Assembly: GCA_964453485.1 (NCBI GenBank)
Contig: CAYVOJ010000002.1
Span: 1 to 28,781 of the forward strand
Reading direction: 5' to 3'
DNA: 28,781 bases
Origin: an uncultured Candidatus Saccharibacteria bacterium
GTDB lineage: Bacteria; Patescibacteriota; Minisyncoccia; Phycocordibacterales; UBA5272
A program made the translations under genes and the position numbers. Below the pieces are notes generated by a model that worked only from the letters and a program-made list of their open reading frames with translations, had not been told where the DNA came from and made no database searches. Positions 3,079 through 13,500 of this stretch are shown one piece after another (positions within the stretch are counted from its first letter, which is position 1; each line of letters starts with the position of its first letter).

Positions 3079-4536
3079 ATGGCATCTATCGAAGAACTGC
3101 GCGCTGAGCGTCTTAAAAAATTACAAGCTCTACAAGAAAAAGGGGTTTCTGGATATCCGAGCGTTTCTCGTCGTACTCATGAACTTCATGAAGTTATTCG
3201 AACGTTTGCAAAATTAGCAGAAGATGCTGTGCAGGTGATTGTTTCAGGACGTGTCATGTCTTCACGTGGACAGGGCGCACTTGTATTTATCGATCTCTAT
3301 GACGGAACAGCCAAACTTCAAGCGGTTATCAAGTTGCCAGAGTCTAGTGAAGAGACACTACAATTTTACAAAGACTACGTAGACACAGGAGACTTCATTG
3401 AAGTAACAGGAACACTCTTTGTAACAAAGTCAGGGCAAGAGAGTGTCCTTGTGAATTCAATTGCAATGCTTTCCAAGTCACTTCTTCCTCTTCCTGATAA
3501 GTATCACGGTATCCAAGATGAAGAACTTCGTATGCGTGAGCGGTACTTAGACATCCTAACTAATCCCGAACTTCGTGAGCTCTTTGAGAAGAAATCAAAA
3601 TTCTGGGATGTAGTGCGTTCTTTTTTGAAAGAGAAGAAATTTCTTGAAGTTGAAACTCCAACACTTGAAGTTACAACAGGTGGTGCAGAAGCTCGGCCAT
3701 TTGCGACACATCACAATGATTTTGATCTTGATGTTTTTATGCGTATCTCTATCGGCGAACTTTGGCAAAAGCGTCTCATGGCTGCAGGTTTTCCAAAGAC
3801 TTTTGAAATTGGACGTGCGTACCGCAATGAGGGTTCATCACCTGACCATCTTCAAGAATTTACAAATTGTGAATTTTATATGGCATATGCTGACTTTGAG
3901 GATGGTATGAAGCTTGTTGAAGAGCTTTACCGTACGATTGCAAAGGAAGTATTTGGTACAACGACATTTACTACACGTGGACATACTTTTGATTTGAGTG
4001 AACCTTGGGCACATATTGATTATCACGATGAGATTCTGAAGCAGACAGGTATTGATATCATACAAGCAACTGATGAAGAAATTGTTCATAGGCTTCAAGA
4101 GCTTAAGGTAAAGTATGATGGTATAAATCGTGAGCGTCTTACTGATACCTTGTGGAAGTACTGCCGAAAGAATATTTCAGGTCCAGCATTTCTTATCAAC
4201 CACCCGCTTTTAGTTGCGCCACTTGCTAAGCAGAATAAAGACGGCATAACTGCCCAGATCTTTCAGCCGATCTTAGCTGGTAGTGAACTTGGAAAAGGAT
4301 ATTCAGAGTTAAATGATCCAATCGATCAGCGTGCACGTTTCCAGAAGCAGCAAGAGTTACTTGCAGGAGGAGATGAAGAGGCGATGATGGCGGATGATTC
4401 ATTTATCGAGATGCTTGAGCATGGTATGCCACCAACATGTGGATTCGGCTTCGGTGACAGACTCTTTGCATTCTTTGCAGGGTTACCTATACGAGAGACT
4501 CAAATGTTCCCACTCGTAAAACCAAAGCATAACTAA
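3079..4536 (+). CDS. lysS: Lysine--tRNA ligase (class II)
   Basis: OB-fold anticodon domain (GRVMSSRGQG, FIDLYD), RERYLD, FEIGRAYRNEG, EFTNCEFY, GMPPTCGFGFGDRL. Confidence 0.97.
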   Translation: MASIEELRAERLKKLQALQEKGVSGYPSVSRRTHELHEVIRTFAKLAEDAVQVIVSGRVMSSRGQGALVFIDLYDGTAKLQAVIKLPESSEETLQFYKDYVDTGDFIEVTGTLFVTKSGQESVLVNSIAMLSKSLLPLPDKYHGIQDEELRMRERYLDILTNPELRELFEKKSKFWDVVRSFLKEKKFLEVETPTLEVTTGGAEARPFATHHNDFDLDVFMRISIGELWQKRLMAAGFPKTFEIGRAYRNEGSSPDHLQEFTNCEFYMAYADFEDGMKLVEELYRTIAKEVFGTTTFTTRGHTFDLSEPWAHIDYHDEILKQTGIDIIQATDEEIVHRLQELKVKYDGINRERLTDTLWKYCRKNISGPAFLINHPLLVAPLAKQNKDGITAQIFQPILAGSELGKGYSELNDPIDQRARFQKQQELLAGGDEEAMMADDSFIEMLEHGMPPTCGFGFGDRLFAFFAGLPIRETQMFPLVKPKHN

Positions 4537-4549
4537 TAAATCATCCCAC

Positions 4550-4660
4550 CTACGTTGTTGTTACGGAATTTTTCTCAGTCAACGTACTTGTTGTACGTCT
4601 CCTTCAAAAAATCCTAGACTCATAGTATCTAGAATAATTTCTTAGTTATGTACGATGAGT
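4550..4660. repeat. Structured palindromic intergenic element (REP-like or ncRNA candidate)
   Basis: Outer stem ggaattttt (4565-4573)/aaaaaatcc (4606-4614) encloses acgtac-ttgtt-gtacgt (4582-4598). A second hairpin is closed by actcat (4618-4623)/atgagt (4655-4660). Confidence 0.4.
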
Positions 4661-4667
4661 AGATTAG

Positions 4668-4718
4668 ATGGGGAAAAAGAAAAGCGTGACCAAAGGTCGC
4701 GCTTTTCTTTTTCCCCAT
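4668..4718. terminator. Bidirectional terminator-like hairpin, 24-bp arms
   Basis: atggggaaaaagaaaagcgtgacc-aaa-ggtcgcgcttttctttttccccat, with one G-U position. Confidence 0.75.
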
Positions 4719-4789
4719 AAGTGTAGTAGGATTCTACATTGAACCCCGTAAGGGAATGTACAACCACTTAGTTTCTGAAAGGAAACACT

Positions 4790-5389
4790 ATGATATCTCA
4801 CGAATTGGAAGTCATCCTACATATGGTCTTTACGGAGGCAAGACGCCAGCGTCACGCGCTGATTACGGTGGAGCACTTACTTCTTGGGCTTCTTCAAGCG
4901 GAAAGTGCACGGGAAGGATTGCTCGCTTGTGCTGTCGACATTGAAGGCTTGCGCAAGTCGTTAGCTGACCATATCAAGGAAAGTACCCCACTGGTTAGCG
5001 GCGATGATGAGGCAGATACTCAACCGACATCTGGTTTCCAGTGCGTCATACAACGCGCCATTAGTGATGTTCAATCCTTGTATGGTGGCGCAAGAGAAGT
5101 CTCTGGGGTCAATGCTCTTCTGTCAGTTTTTTGTGAGACCAACTCTGAGGCTGTCCGTCAATTGCATATACGCGGTATAAGTCGGCTTGATATAGCCAAC
5201 TTTATATCTCGTGACACCACCAAAGATGGCAGCCAGACAGCTATTTCTTGTGAAGTATTTATTTCTCACCGATGGACGAGAAAAGAGATTGAAGGCCTCG
5301 TTGAGACTGTTCCTCCTGACATGAGGACCAGGATTGAGGCTTTCTTTCAGCAGGGTCAGCGTAATGCGAGGGGAAGCCACGTTCGCTAA
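4790..5389 (+). CDS. Stand-alone ClpA N-terminal (Clp repeat) domain protein with a short unrelated tail and no AAA+ domains
   Basis: Residues 1-~145 follow the proteobacterial ClpA N-domain (ELEVILHMVFTEAR..RH..ITVEHLLL; DTQPT.GFQ.VIQRA; EVSG.N.L; SRLDIANFIS). Stop after 199 aa, no Walker motifs, own terminator. Confidence 0.85.
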   Translation: MISHELEVILHMVFTEARRQRHALITVEHLLLGLLQAESAREGLLACAVDIEGLRKSLADHIKESTPLVSGDDEADTQPTSGFQCVIQRAISDVQSLYGGAREVSGVNALLSVFCETNSEAVRQLHIRGISRLDIANFISRDTTKDGSQTAISCEVFISHRWTRKEIEGLVETVPPDMRTRIEAFFQQGQRNARGSHVR

Positions 5390-5409
5390 GTGTTTTGTGC
5401 TCGATTTCC

Positions 5410-5440
5410 AAAAGGTTCGTCATAAGATGAGCCTTTTTTG
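5410..5440 (+). terminator. Intrinsic terminator
   Basis: aaaaggttcgtc-ataa-gatgagcctttt plus T tract, just after the stop at 5389. Confidence 0.7.
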
Positions 5441-5478
5441 TATTTCTTTAAAAATTTAAAATTAGAAACTAAAAATTT

Positions 5479-5524
5479 CCTGAAAATGAGGTTTTACACG
5501 GTTATGTAAAACCTCATTTTCAGG
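5479..5524. repeat. Perfect 20-bp inverted repeat
   Basis: cctgaaaatgaggttttaca-cggtta-tgtaaaacctcattttcagg. Confidence 0.9.
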
Positions 5525-5560
5525 TTGTCCACACCTATTTCCTAGGTTTTTAAGAGATAA

Positions 5561-5596
5561 GTGGAGTATAATGGTTGTTAGTGGGGGAAAGTGGGA
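5561..5596 (+). promoter_or_regulatory. mraZ promoter with MraZ-binding (dcw) boxes
   Basis: GTGGAG (5561), ATGGTT (5571, degenerate), GTGGGG (5581) and GTGGGA (5591) at 10-bp spacing, overlapping TATAAT (5567-5572). Matches the known GTGG-repeat MraZ operators. Confidence 0.75.
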
Positions 5597-5670
5597 GCTT
5601 TCCAAAAGTCATGGACTTTTAGTTGTATTGAGTTTTGTTTTCCCTCATTGCACCCTACTCACTACACCCT

Positions 5671-9116: not shown

Positions 9117-9172
9117 AGATGGTGCGTACAGAATTGGTACGCCTGAGATACGATATACTATATACTGCCTCT

Positions 9173-10582
9173 ATGCCTATTAATCCTCTACGTGTACGAA
9201 ATATATCAGCGAAAGACTACAAAGGTGGTACGGTGATATATCGTATGTGTCGTGATCTTCGTGCACATGATAATGACGCGCTTCTTTTTGCACAGAGTCT
9301 CGCTACGAGTAAGGGTGCAGAATTGATTGTGGTGTATACGATATGGAATTATGAATGGGTCGGGGCAACACGCAGATTCTATGACTGGGTTATTCCAAGT
9401 CTTATTGAAGTTGAAAAGGAACTACGAGCACATAATATTCCACTCGTGATTGCCTTTGACCAAGATTTTCCGAAACACACCACGAAAACATCGTGCGGTG
9501 CTGTGGTTATTGATCAGCTACCACTTCATTTTATGAATACGTGGAAGAAAGAGTTTCTTGCTCATGCAAATAACACGGCTCTTTATGAAGTCGATGCACA
9601 CAATGTGATCCCGGTCTGGGAGCTTTCTCAAAAACAAGAATTCGCTGCACGAACGATACGAAGTAAAGTGCATGCAAAGATATCTTCTTTCTTGGAAGAC
9701 TATGACAAATTGAAAGTGCATCCTCACAACAAAGAACTTCTTGAAACGTATAGAGCAGTAGACTGGGAACACGTACGGACACAGATTAGGTGTCGAGAAG
9801 ATGTTGCTGGAACAGGTGAGAATAGTCCTGGAGAGCATGCGTCACACAAGGTTTTGAAAGAGTTCTTGGATAAAAAACTTTCAGCGTATGGAGATGCTCG
9901 CAATGATATAAATGGAGATGGTCAGAGTAATCTTTCTCCATATATCTCGCATGGGAATATTTCTCGTAGGAGAATTGTTCTCGAGCTCCTTGCAAAGTCT
10001 CAAATAACAATAGAGAAAGCCTTTGATTCAGTTCAGAATGGATCAAACGGCACAATGGGAAGCACGGCTTCATTTATTGAAGAGTGTGTCGTCAGGTCTG
10101 AGCTGTGTGAGAATTTCTGTTTTTACAACGAGAAGTATGATTCATACGAAGGATTTCCTTTGTGGGCACAAGACACGCTAAAGAAAGCTCTCACTGATAA
10201 ACGCGAGTATGTGTATACATTAGAAGAATTTGAAAAAGCAAAAACGCATGATGATCTTTGGAATGCAGCACAGATGCAGATGGTGAAAACAGGGAAGATG
10301 CAGGGATACATGCGTATGTATTGGGCAAAGAAAATTTTAGAATGGACAAAGTCTCCACAAGAGGCGATGCATATTGCAGTGTACCTCAATGATACCTATG
10401 AGTTAGATGGTCGTGATCCAAATGGGTACGTAGGATGTGCGTGGAGCATAGGCGGTGTACATGATAGGCCATGGTTTGGTCGTTCAATATTTGGCACTAT
10501 TCGCTACATGGCGCAGTCTGGGGTGGAGAAGCGCGGAAAGGTGCACACCTACATAGAGAAATGGCTCGGGCTCTCTGCATGA
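9173..10582 (+). CDS. phr: Class II CPD DNA photolyase
   Basis: RDLRAHDNDALLFA, SNLSPYISHG, GKMQGYMRMYWAKKILEWT, YELDGRDPNGYVG, WSIGGVHDRPW, IFGTIRYM. Start placed at ATG 9173, 6 nt after TATACT (ORF track starts at 9119). Confidence 0.93.
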   Translation: MPINPLRVRNISAKDYKGGTVIYRMCRDLRAHDNDALLFAQSLATSKGAELIVVYTIWNYEWVGATRRFYDWVIPSLIEVEKELRAHNIPLVIAFDQDFPKHTTKTSCGAVVIDQLPLHFMNTWKKEFLAHANNTALYEVDAHNVIPVWELSQKQEFAARTIRSKVHAKISSFLEDYDKLKVHPHNKELLETYRAVDWEHVRTQIRCREDVAGTGENSPGEHASHKVLKEFLDKKLSAYGDARNDINGDGQSNLSPYISHGNISRRRIVLELLAKSQITIEKAFDSVQNGSNGTMGSTASFIEECVVRSELCENFCFYNEKYDSYEGFPLWAQDTLKKALTDKREYVYTLEEFEKAKTHDDLWNAAQMQMVKTGKMQGYMRMYWAKKILEWTKSPQEAMHIAVYLNDTYELDGRDPNGYVGCAWSIGGVHDRPWFGRSIFGTIRYMAQSGVEKRGKVHTYIEKWLGLSA

Positions 10583-12518: not shown

Positions 12519-13298
12519 TTATATCAAGCAGACAAACTTGGTCCTGCACTCGTAGCCACGAGCATGTTCAAAAGTTAACTTTGGAGAATTGTCACCTGAC
12601 CAATGTGCTACGTTAGGGTGATTTGCCCTATCAGTGCCAAAGAGTACGAAATGATGTTTTATTAATCGCTTGACACACTCATGTTTGTAAAACAAATAAG
12701 CAAGACCTTCTGGCGAAGATATAAGATCGTCAACTCGGCTCTTGAGAATGTCAAAGCCGCTTTCATACGTCGGATTGAATTTTGTCTCCAATATTACAAC
12801 TACTCCATCTTCTTTATTTTTTATTGCTTGTAACTCTGCCCACAAGCGGTCAGCGAGCTTTCTCGTATCTCCCTCCTTTTCGGGTAGCTTTTTCGGAGCA
12901 ATGTCTCCTATCTCACCGTGATGTTTTAGGAACATCTCAGCATACAATTCGTCATAACTTCTTGGCAGAAAAACAAGAAATTGTTGTATAGTGTATGCCT
13001 CACATATTTCCAGGCCTCCTGTGTAAAGAGAACAGGTAACAGTACTTTGACCATCTTTCAGAATGGGAGGAACAACACCTAGAAGTCTTTCTTCTTCTTC
13101 AATTTGCTGTCTGGTTTGTGCTTGTCGGCTTTTATATAGTTCTCTCAATTTTCTGTAGAAATCTATACATTCTGAAAAGTGGTTTTGATGTAATCCGTGC
13201 TCATCTGCCAAAAAGAAGCGACGATTTTTCATCAAATCAAGTATGATTTGGTTAATCCTCTTGATTTGGGTGGGGGTAAGATTGACTAAGGTACTCAT
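12519..13298 (-). CDS. Orphan hypothetical protein (259 aa)
   Basis: Long ORF with no competing + strand gene, preceded by ctgaaaggaaaatcgc and a sigma70-type promoter. No recognisable motif. Confidence 0.75.
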   Translation of the reverse strand: MSTLVNLTPTQIKRINQIILDLMKNRRFFLADEHGLHQNHFSECIDFYRKLRELYKSRQAQTRQQIEEEERLLGVVPPILKDGQSTVTCSLYTGGLEICEAYTIQQFLVFLPRSYDELYAEMFLKHHGEIGDIAPKKLPEKEGDTRKLADRLWAELQAIKNKEDGVVVILETKFNPTYESGFDILKSRVDDLISSPEGLAYLFYKHECVKRLIKHHFVLFGTDRANHPNVAHWSGDNSPKLTFEHARGYECRTKFVCLI

Positions 13299-13367
13299 GC
13301 GATTTTCCTTTCAGGATTATCAAGTGTAAAAGAACAGTGGCTTTGCAGGATTGCATTAACCGTTTTA

Positions 13368-13396
13368 AAACTATCACAAGGTATTGACACAGTCAA
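13368..13396 (-). promoter_or_regulatory. Sigma70-type promoter of the orphan gene
   Basis: Minus strand TTGACT-N17-TAGTTT with TG extension. The -35 lies in the palindrome TTGAC-ACA-GTCAA. Confidence 0.5.
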
Positions 13397-13500
13397 AAAA
13401 TGAAACCGGAAAAGATACCCTTTTAATTGAACTATGTGAAGGATAAAAACAATTATGAGAAAATGTGTTAGAATGGTAAGTATTATTTATTTTTTGTATT

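Follow-up and report, generated by a model that had tools for sequence, protein, structure and literature searches.

Clp N-domains also occur as separate proteins that regulate Clp unfoldases or act as their decoys; the known examples, mycobacterial ClpC2 and plastid ClpT, all derive from the organism's own ClpC. Mycobacterial ClpC2 is a stand-alone homologue of the N-terminal domain of ClpC1 that binds cyclomarin A and phospho-arginine (PMC10030653, PMC13345244; PDB 8AD9, 8B9O), while the ClpC-derived plastid proteins ClpT1 and ClpT2 bind the ClpP/R ring and are conserved components of the chloroplast Clp core (PMC4243950). Here we analyse a 28,781-nt stretch of bacterial DNA (contig CAYVOJ010000002.1; 28.8 kb, called the window throughout) from a member of the Candidate Phyla Radiation (CPR), in which one gene, at 4790..5389 on the + strand, encodes a stand-alone ClpA-type N-domain protein of 199 amino acids (aa) starting with ATG. 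We call its product ClpN. What is new about it is its ClpA descent, its cross-phylum capture into CPR, its C-terminal tail, and its residence in a hotspot with a hyper-allelic population structure. A literature search on Clp components in CPR or Parcubacteria and on the ClpN architecture found nothing relevant.

ClpN and ClpC2 are alike in being Clp N-domains without AAA+ modules, proposed to bind ligands of the N-domain of a full-length unfoldase (a decoy logic), and their structures match at a Foldseek E of ~6e-5. They differ in that ClpC2 comes from the organism's own ClpC1, works as a repressor and carries an additional region at its N-terminus, whereas ClpN is of foreign ClpA descent, is ~18% identical to ClpC2 and carries a C-terminal helical tail. 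ClpT1 and ClpT2 are likewise stand-alone, N-domain-like accessory proteins of the Clp system (PMC4243950), but ClpN is ClpA-derived, accessory and patchy. By analogy ClpN would work like these stand-alone proteins, yet it falls outside both families because it lacks their ClpC-type descent. Its closest counterpart is instead the N-domain of ClpA itself (ClpA-N) from Burkholderiales and E. coli (PDB 1K6K, 1LZW, 1MBX, 1R6O), with which it shares fold and homology over residues 1-146. Compared with ClpA, ClpN has neither the D1/D2 rings nor the ClpP-docking loop and stops where ClpA continues 'DPLIGR'; it is also CPR-encoded, fast-evolving and present as divergent alleles, of which the window allele has Ala23 and Cys85.

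On balance we think it probable, if only slightly so, that the following account explains the gene. A Nomurabacteria-like CPR lineage captured horizontally the 5′ ~190 codons of a Burkholderiales-type clpA, comprising the N-domain, the linker and what is probably left of the first D1 helix. They sit in the lysS-mraZ interval, a hotspot of variable cargo, and have their own conserved leader, ribosome-binding site (RBS) and terminator. ClpN is maintained there as a functional accessory gene, its divergent alleles recombined between near-identical genomes. The protein would act as a non-catalytic binding module whose ClpA-N surface, probably with the helical tail as a second contact, titrates or hands over a ligand, the candidates being a ClpS-type adaptor, a substrate or another ClpA-N ligand. 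We hold the origin, status and context of ClpN in this account with high confidence; the decoy or adaptor mechanism is a tentative suggestion. Every gene that these ultra-small CPR bacteria retain is informative, and ClpN offers a concrete case in which the capture and repurposing of a domain can be tested.

A ClpA-type N-domain as a separate protein

Residues 1-145 of the window protein (4790..5224, + strand) form a ClpA-type N-domain with a double Clp_N repeat, as judged from PDB matches, structure prediction, Foldseek and the selection analysis. Clp_N is the sole Pfam family in the whole protein at E up to 1. Positions 1-149 of the NCBIfam ClpA equivalog PRK11034 match residues 1-150 (E 8e-42), and the score of 143 bits against a whole-protein cut-off of 1350 bits means that only the N-domain is present. 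The top PDB matches are six E. coli ClpA or ClpA-N entries covering residues 1-146 (E 3e-36 to 6e-35), with an end-to-end alignment to 1lzw_B over these residues (E 3e-36); N-domains of ClpC, ClpC1 and ClpC2 match at E 1e-4 to 3e-3 and ~18-24% identity (PDB search and Foldseek). An AlphaFold2 model made from a 27-sequence alignment has a predicted local distance difference test (pLDDT) score >90 over residues 1-144 and superposes on ClpA-N crystal structures (1k6k, 1r6o_B) with a root-mean-square deviation of 1.3-1.5 Å over 141 residues (template modelling score 0.93, Foldseek). Beyond the domain, residues 146-160 (5225..5269, + strand) make up a disordered linker with neutral ω (dN/dS), whose length and sequence differ among alleles; pLDDT is <50 across residues 145-161.

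Searches with tblastn using a Burkholderiales ClpA fragment, full-length E. coli ClpA and E. coli ClpS found no remnant of the D1/D2 AAA+ modules or of clpS across the 28.8-kb window, and six-frame translation of both ClpN flanks gave no D1 or clpS remnant. ClpN has the N-terminal double Clp_N repeat of a ClpA and lacks the two AAA+ modules and the ClpP-docking loop. It is therefore not a ClpA, the defining AAA+ modules being absent, and represents the Clp N-domain fold as a separate protein. Without these modules it could presumably neither unfold proteins nor dock ClpP, and could only bind. An earlier note on this DNA, made from the sequence alone, had described an intact 199-aa open reading frame (ORF) that aligns with ClpA N-domains over its first ~145 aa and has no AAA+ module, which these results bear out. 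The protein is identical in an independent Logan assembly, and its cluster at 90% identity or more has six members.

Burkholderiales-type origin

In a search of 5.8 billion proteins, the named top matches to the window protein are all ClpA of Burkholderiales (Burkholderiaceae, Rubrivivax, Variovorax, Hydrogenophaga, Acidovorax, Rhodoferax and Sphaerotilus) at 56-61% identity, compared with 50% for E. coli ClpA; a closest match to betaproteobacterial ClpA had been proposed in the earlier note. The same holds for the other alleles described below, all of which are nearer to Burkholderiales ClpA (30-74%) than to E. coli ClpA (26-58%) over 148 trimmed columns. The slowest-evolving, P0176, is 74% identical to Burkholderiales ClpA and has the N-terminus MIAQELEVSLHIAFVEARQQRHEFITVEHLLL.

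Base composition also sets the gene apart. The G+C content of ClpN is 0.488 (0.45 at third codon positions, GC3), against 0.41-0.42 (GC3 0.30-0.33) for lysS, mraZ and rsmH, in agreement with the higher G+C that the note had counted on a few lines, and the 600-nt bin over ClpN is the G+C maximum of the window. GC3 of ClpN exceeds that of its neighbours by lineage at 0.45 versus ~0.31, 0.51 versus 0.32, 0.64 versus 0.38 and 0.66 versus 0.52, and one further lineage has a ClpN GC3 of 0.39 against a locus G+C of 0.34, such that every lineage shows raised ClpN GC3 (0.39-0.66) relative to its neighbours or locus (0.30-0.53). Nearest homologues in a donor clade, anomalous composition and patchy presence at a conserved locus, as expected of horizontal acquisition, are thus all found. 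In a neighbour-joining tree, which does not separate one from several acquisitions, the alleles branch one after another beneath the Burkholderiales crown with poor support (bootstraps 16-44). We favour a single acquisition because the alleles share both locus and tail motif.

We also considered a phage origin. The matches on viral contigs are full-length ClpA, namely ordinary enterobacterial ClpA of 758 aa and one other, and the PHROG match is a full-length ClpA-like family, none of which supports it.

Two other kinds of ClpA-N protein were seen outside this family. P0174 (L011:206-865) is another stand-alone ClpA-N protein, of 219 aa, with a different tail, encoded upstream of secE; its N-domain is 74% identical to Burkholderiales ClpA, its contig has 32-36% G+C, and it may have been captured independently, at another site. 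Five proteins (P0158, P0218, P0007, P0003 and P0160) have two tandem ClpA-type N-domains each. The C-terminal ends of P0158 and P0218 read as a ClpS domain, and P0007 has precomputed Pfam assignments to PF02861 and PF02617 (ClpS); some of these tandem proteins may be assembly chimeras, and others look like real N-N-ClpS fusions.

Divergent alleles in a variable-cargo hotspot

The window is core chromosome. Its gene order begins mreC, PBP2, greA, lysS, ClpN, mraZ, rsmH, a small ORF (presumably ftsL) and ftsI, and continues with ychF, a sigma factor, alaS, S13/S11/S4, rpoA, L17, L13, S9 and grpE-dnaK. Names in the 90%-identity MraZ cluster and in the mraZ-anchored genomes are Candidatus Nomurabacteria, Paceibacterota or Parcubacteria, identifying the carrier as a Nomurabacteria-like (Paceibacteria), Parcubacteria-type CPR bacterium and not a Saccharibacterium.

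An exhaustive profile search with context look-ups recovered further stand-alone ClpN proteins of 182-199 aa (P0005, P0166, P0176 and P0194) as well as close variants of the window type (P0001 and P0122-P0125). As far as contigs reach the relevant genes, those for P0005, P0166, P0176, P0194, P0001 and P0122 lie after mreB-mreC-PBP2-greA-lysS and immediately before mraZ-rsmH-ftsL-ftsI. Scans anchored on mraZ, covering 185,579 species genomes and JGI metagenomes, add L015/L109 (Ca. Nomurabacteria UBA11704; 194 aa with a full tail), L017 (N-domain only) and L021 (cut after the tail Trp). At least eight divergent allele groups therefore occupy the same site just upstream of mraZ, and the stand-alone architecture, which the note had proposed to look for in other CPR genomes, recurs there. 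Misassembly and contamination are excluded, since at least 12 independent assemblies, produced by different studies, show ClpN with the same junctions and flanked on either side by CPR genes.

ClpN is one of many alternative cargo genes at this site, a context beyond the earlier note. We surveyed the interval between lysS and mraZ (4537..5670 in the window, where ClpN occupies it) among relatives whose MraZ is at least 70% identical, at loci L014-L043 and L094-L109. The interval is empty, at ~200-265 nt, in L023, L025, L027, L028, L030, L031, L033 and L103. Where occupied it spans 500-2150 nt and holds unrelated genes among relatives: L014 has a Macro-domain protein, L016 and L095 a YafQ/ParE-like toxin beside a small antitoxin-like ORF (a pair that accompanies ClpN in L015), L017 DUF7768, L018 a winged-helix protein, L020 a tRNA-binding domain and L024 a dCMP-deaminase-like protein, and ORFans are numerous. 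ClpN is present in 4/160 mraZ-anchored loci, which together with the alternative cargo marks it as an accessory gene. The site resembles variable islets and hotspots between core genes in its conserved flanks, alternative cargo, empty sites and recombination into a flank, and differs from them in that no integrase, tRNA or repeat-bounded element is seen at it. The lysS-mraZ hotspot may serve as a landmark for finding accessory or conflict genes in Paceibacteria.

Selection and allele exchange

Rates of synonymous and non-synonymous change (dS and dN; Nei-Gojobori, own implementation) set ClpN apart from the genes around it. Between the window and L012, whose ClpN proteins are 91% identical, dS is 0.084, dN is 0.043 and ω is 0.51, compared with ω of 0-0.07 at similar dS for PBP2, greA, lysS, mraZ, rsmH and ftsI. 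At longer range, between the window and L005, ClpN has dS 0.92, dN 0.37 and ω 0.40, and neighbouring genes have ω 0.012-0.095. The protein thus changes ~20x faster than its neighbours at equal synonymous divergence, with ω remaining <1. By region, ω is 0.18-0.50 in the N-domain, 0.8-1.8 in the linker and 0.16-0.47 in the tail. ClpN is under purifying selection and its linker is neutral; because selection separates the two folded parts from the linker, we regard ClpN as a functional protein and not as plain decay.

Divergence of ClpN is decoupled from that of the genomes that carry it. LysS of L001 and L005 is 99.7% identical at the protein level (dS 0.11), and their ClpN proteins are 50% identical (dS 1.46); between the window and L005, PBP2 is 96%, GreA 99% and ClpN 53% identical. 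All pairwise ClpN identities in this comparison lie at 41-53%, independent of genome distance; the wider set of divergent alleles at the site spans 35-53%. Nucleotide identity between the window and L005 is ~88% in the flanks, drops to 51-80% between mid-lysS (~3520) and the 3′ end of ClpN (~5315), and then recovers. On the simplest reading of these patterns, old and divergent ClpN alleles would have been swapped by homologous recombination. We found no consistent support in region-wise identities for a model of a constant tail with a variable N-domain. The population signature is unusual in combining alleles that are ~50% identical beside a 99.7% identical neighbour with ω far above that of housekeeping genes.

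The adjoining part of lysS shows a related pattern. Its 3′ half (window 3520-4536) is 63-80% identical to L005 at the nucleotide level, compared with ~88% for the 5′ part of lysS and the PBP2/greA flank, and LysS is only 78-84% identical where PBP2 is 96% identical. This suggests that recombination tracts from the hotspot may reach into lysS.

A predicted helical tail and its possible origin in D1

The tail of ClpN (residues 161-199; 5270..5386, + strand) is predicted to form a helical hairpin (helices at 164-173 and 176-195) with pLDDT ~70-82, its distal part being RIEAFFQQGQRNARGSHVR. Full-length alleles share a tail motif consisting of aromatic-x-[WFA], ~20 residues with conserved Leu/Phe, and then [LIV]-x-x-F-[FL]; F185 is invariant in 8/8 aligned alleles, and W162 is present in six of the eight, being replaced in L015 and P0274. 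The proximal tail, from W162 onwards, stands in place of the acidic ClpA linker. A tail-only profile search of 5.8 billion proteins and a comparison of the tail alone with Pfam each returned nothing at E up to 10.

MAFFT lines up the distal tail RIEAFFQQGQRNARGSHVR with ClpA PLEQFTQNLNQLAKDGKID, the first helix of D1. We scored each allele against a ClpA(1-300) profile and compared the score with those of 500 tail-shuffled versions. For P0005, 0/500 shuffles reach the real score, and its tail aligns to ClpA PLDQYTQNLNQLARDGKI, through model position 193. Shuffles reached the score in 17/500 cases for P0176, 22/500 for L005, 91/500 for P0194, 97/500 for L015, 182/500 for the window protein (not significant), 214/500 for P0122 and 455/500 for P0274. 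A narrow 22-column hidden Markov model of the D1 start gave no significant result for P0005 (168/2000 shuffles) and no match for the window protein, and a hhalign alignment of the ClpN family with ClpA(1-300) ended at column 153. The last 19 residues of the window protein are identical to P0005 at 14/19 positions, which by transitivity makes its distal tail a probable relic of the D1 start as well. We therefore trace the distal tail, with moderate confidence, to the first D1 helix of ClpA; the captured piece would then amount to ~190 codons of clpA, ending just before 'DPLIGR'. The tail had been described as ~50 aa of novel sequence, which stands for the proximal part, without detectable relative, and not for the last ~20 residues, with their probable origin in D1.

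We also considered whether the tail might be a remnant of the beta-A/alpha-A region of a TIR domain, prompted by the string 'VFISH' and by P0241, and rejected this, as the family has no TIR or PADLOC match. P0241 itself joins a ClpA-type N-domain to the beginning of a TIR-like ThsB domain (PADLOC E 1.2e-6 for residues 169-209); it is apparently cut by a contig end, and its tail is unrelated to that of ClpN. Its domain make-up suggests that ClpA-N may act as a sensor module in a defence-type protein.

ClpS-contact residues

According to PMC12493166, which cites the ClpS–ClpA-N crystal structure, ClpS Lys84 and Glu82 form salt bridges with ClpA Glu23 and Arg86, respectively, and ClpS Glu79 forms hydrogen bonds with ClpA Glu28 and Thr81. 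In the window protein both salt-bridge residues are changed, to Ala23 (codon GCG, 4856..4858, + strand) and Cys85 (codon TGC, 5042..5044, + strand), which align with E. coli Glu23 and Arg86, and both hydrogen-bond residues are kept (E28 and T80). Glu23 and Arg86 are both present in P0005, L005, P0176, P0194, L015 and P0274; all four contacts are intact in four alleles, and two more (L015 and P0274) differ only by Thr81->Ser. Glu28 is invariant across alleles, and position 81 is Thr, or Ser in L015, P0274 and L017. L021 has Ala at 23 and His at 86, and L017 has Arg at 23 with Arg86 kept.

The earlier note had named Glu23 and Arg86 as ClpS-interface residues and had seen Ala23 and Cys85 in their place, correctly on both counts. 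Its claim that ClpS contacts have been lost holds for the salt-bridge residues of the window protein and does not extend to the family. Loss appears to be allele-specific, affecting the window group and, in part, the two degenerate alleles L017 and L021, and the ClpN family as a whole looks ClpS-competent. As most alleles keep Glu23, Glu28, Thr81 and Arg86, we take a ClpS-type adaptor as the default candidate ligand. For the window allele, with its salt-bridge residues replaced, we predict weak ClpS binding or a shifted specificity. The alleles form a natural series differing at the ClpS interface, useful for dissecting recognition by ClpA-N.

Conserved expression signals

The 90 nt before the ClpN ATG (leader, 4700..4789, + strand) are conserved though the proteins of the alleles are only 35-53% identical. 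This leader comprises, all on the + strand, a -10-like TAGGAT (4727-4732), a small stem-loop CCC-GTAA-GGG (4745-4754) and the RBS GAAAGGAAA (4777-4785), and has equivalents in L001, L005, L007, L009, L012, L015, L017 and L021. An alignment of nine allele leaders shows no variation in the RBS, the ATG or the GTA of the -10-like box, which takes the form TAGnnT, and the pairing of the stem-loop is preserved through different sequences (CCGG-ATTT-CGGG, CCCT-GTAAAA-AGGG, TCTC-GTTT-GAGA). A simple sigma-70 scan found no canonical promoter upstream of ClpN; we infer a promoter function from the conservation of the leader. Downstream, 21 nt past the stop codon, a hairpin with a 12-pair stem followed by a T-run (TTGTATTTCT; 5410..5437, + strand) resembles an intrinsic terminator, so that the terminator of its own that the note had assigned to the gene is in place. 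Given the conserved leader and RBS and the terminator, ClpN is probably expressed independently.

Weighing the explanations

Several observations weigh against our account of ClpN as a captured accessory gene that acts as a binding module. No partner was found: ClpS, ClpA, ClpP and ClpX are all missing from the window and from 1.5 Mb of related loci, where the sole Clp-type genes are native Hsp100-type ATPases of distant CPR. The window allele is without both ClpS salt-bridge residues, truncation affects two alleles (L017 and L021), and the gene is absent in the majority of close relatives and must therefore be dispensable. The D1-helix origin of the tail is significant in one allele only (P0005), the neighbour-joining tree does not resolve one acquisition from several, and the short-range ω of 0.5 is not clearly <1 (11 synonymous versus 19 non-synonymous differences). 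Finally, the family is without any defence-model match: comparison of the window protein, P0005, P0176 and L015 with PADLOC gave nothing at E up to 1.

Some of these observations would suit a decaying clpA fragment without present function, drifting towards loss: its ω is far above that of its neighbours and ~0.5 at short range, the window allele is without Glu23 and Arg86, L017 has no tail and L021 is cut after the Trp, and the gene is missing from most close relatives. We nevertheless consider decay unlikely, since ORFs are intact in eight allele groups across dS >1, longer-range ω is 0.18-0.40, constraint on the tail (0.16-0.47) contrasts with a neutral linker (~1), the leader, RBS and terminator are conserved, and the fold is predicted at high confidence. 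The note had left open whether the fragment was repurposed or decaying; repurposing under selection agrees with these data, and simple decay does not. Still less credible, to the point of being nearly negligible, is that ClpN is what remains of a native CPR clp gene formerly located upstream of mraZ, or that faulty assembly or binning put proteobacterial DNA into a CPR contig. Distant CPR do have a Clp ATPase gene directly upstream of mraZ, and the G+C of ClpN is unlike its surroundings. A native remnant is nonetheless ruled out by the ATPase of one such locus (L059), which has no Clp_N and no similarity to the window protein (BLASTP E 0.79), against the 56-74% identity to Burkholderiales ClpA, and an artefact is contradicted by the flanking CPR genes and shared junctions in at least 12 independent assemblies. 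The note had named three findings that would speak against its proposal, and none materialised: ClpN does not group with native CPR ClpC/ClpB N-domains, its nearest relative being Burkholderiales ClpA; with no D1/D2 remnant and the same junctions throughout, it is not a frameshifted or misassembled clpA; and, with ω of 0.16-0.50 outside the linker and a family of alleles, it does not combine a dN/dS near 1 with a lack of homologues.

Other alternatives accept a functional ClpN and differ in its target. ClpN could be a host-directed mimic that the CPR bacterium delivers or exposes to a Burkholderiales host, titrating host ClpS or ClpA-N ligands, with alleles diversifying to follow host variation. 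The donor lineage would fit, as would fast evolution, divergent co-occurring alleles, recombination and the donor-type ClpS-contact residues kept in most alleles, and host-derived genes turned on hosts are a recognised theme of horizontal gene transfer in Patescibacteria (bioRxiv 10.1101/2022.10.05.510940). We give this a low probability: on direct reading the N-terminus is the first helix of the N-domain, with no signal peptide or known secretion signal, the window allele is without both salt-bridge residues, and Burkholderiales abound anyway in the freshwater and groundwater where the lineage occurs. Of the note's idea of capture from a proteobacterium, possibly the host of an episymbiont, our analysis bears out the proteobacterial capture and neither the episymbiotic lifestyle nor a betaproteobacterial host. 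A broader form of the idea, that ClpN is a conflict protein, either a mimic acting against the ClpS/ClpAP N-degron pathway of a betaproteobacterial host or a protein directed against a mobile element or toxin that targets ClpA-N, seems to us quite unlikely; hotspot residence, allele turnover and rapid divergence would then reflect an arms race, and under either the conflict or the mimic reading ClpN would point to the hosts of this CPR clade. Rather improbable, too, is that ClpN serves in trans as the N-domain of a native CPR Hsp100/Clp ATPase that has none of its own, docking through its D1-helix relic. Double-ring Hsp100/Clp ATPases are encoded near mraZ at about 40 loci of distant CPR; that of L059 has a hydrophobic N-terminus and no Pfam Clp_N, that of L075 has no Clp_N among its 25 best Pfam families, and the tail of ClpN is conserved, constrained and probably derived from the D1 start. 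Against this, close relatives show no such ATPase within 6 kb of mraZ and the window has none, most relatives do without ClpN, and we know of no ClpA-N that binds an N-less ring in trans.

The L059 ATPase (L059:3279-5792; 837 aa), encoded directly upstream of mraZ, looks like an N-domain-less, membrane-tethered Clp unfoldase whose N-terminus is probably membrane-anchoring. L075:8286-11060 encodes another of the double-ring ATPases near mraZ.

Other features of the window

Two inverted repeats lie on either side of ClpN. A long, GC-containing and terminator-like one after lysS (4668..4717, + strand; GGGGAAAAAGAAAAGCG...CGCTTTTCTTTTTCCCC, read directly) marks the upstream edge of the variable interval, and its L001 copy matches in inverted orientation. 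In the gap between ClpN and mraZ, a 20-bp perfect inverted repeat (5479..5524; CCTGAAAATGAGGTTTTACA...TGTAAAACCTCATTTTCAGG) scores as terminator-like on the minus strand. An Rfam search for structured RNA in the ClpN flanks, including the repeat at 4668..4717, gave only generic hairpins far below gathering scores.

Directly after ftsI, where more cell-wall (mur) genes might be expected, the window has a 487-aa ORF (9119-10582) with a DNA-photolyase N-terminal domain (Pfam E 1.9e-16), which is kept in L012 and absent from the corresponding position of L007. The only sizeable minus-strand ORF in the window, of 259 aa at 12519-13298, has no Pfam match and overlaps the G+C minimum of the window (0.353, in the bin 12901-13500).

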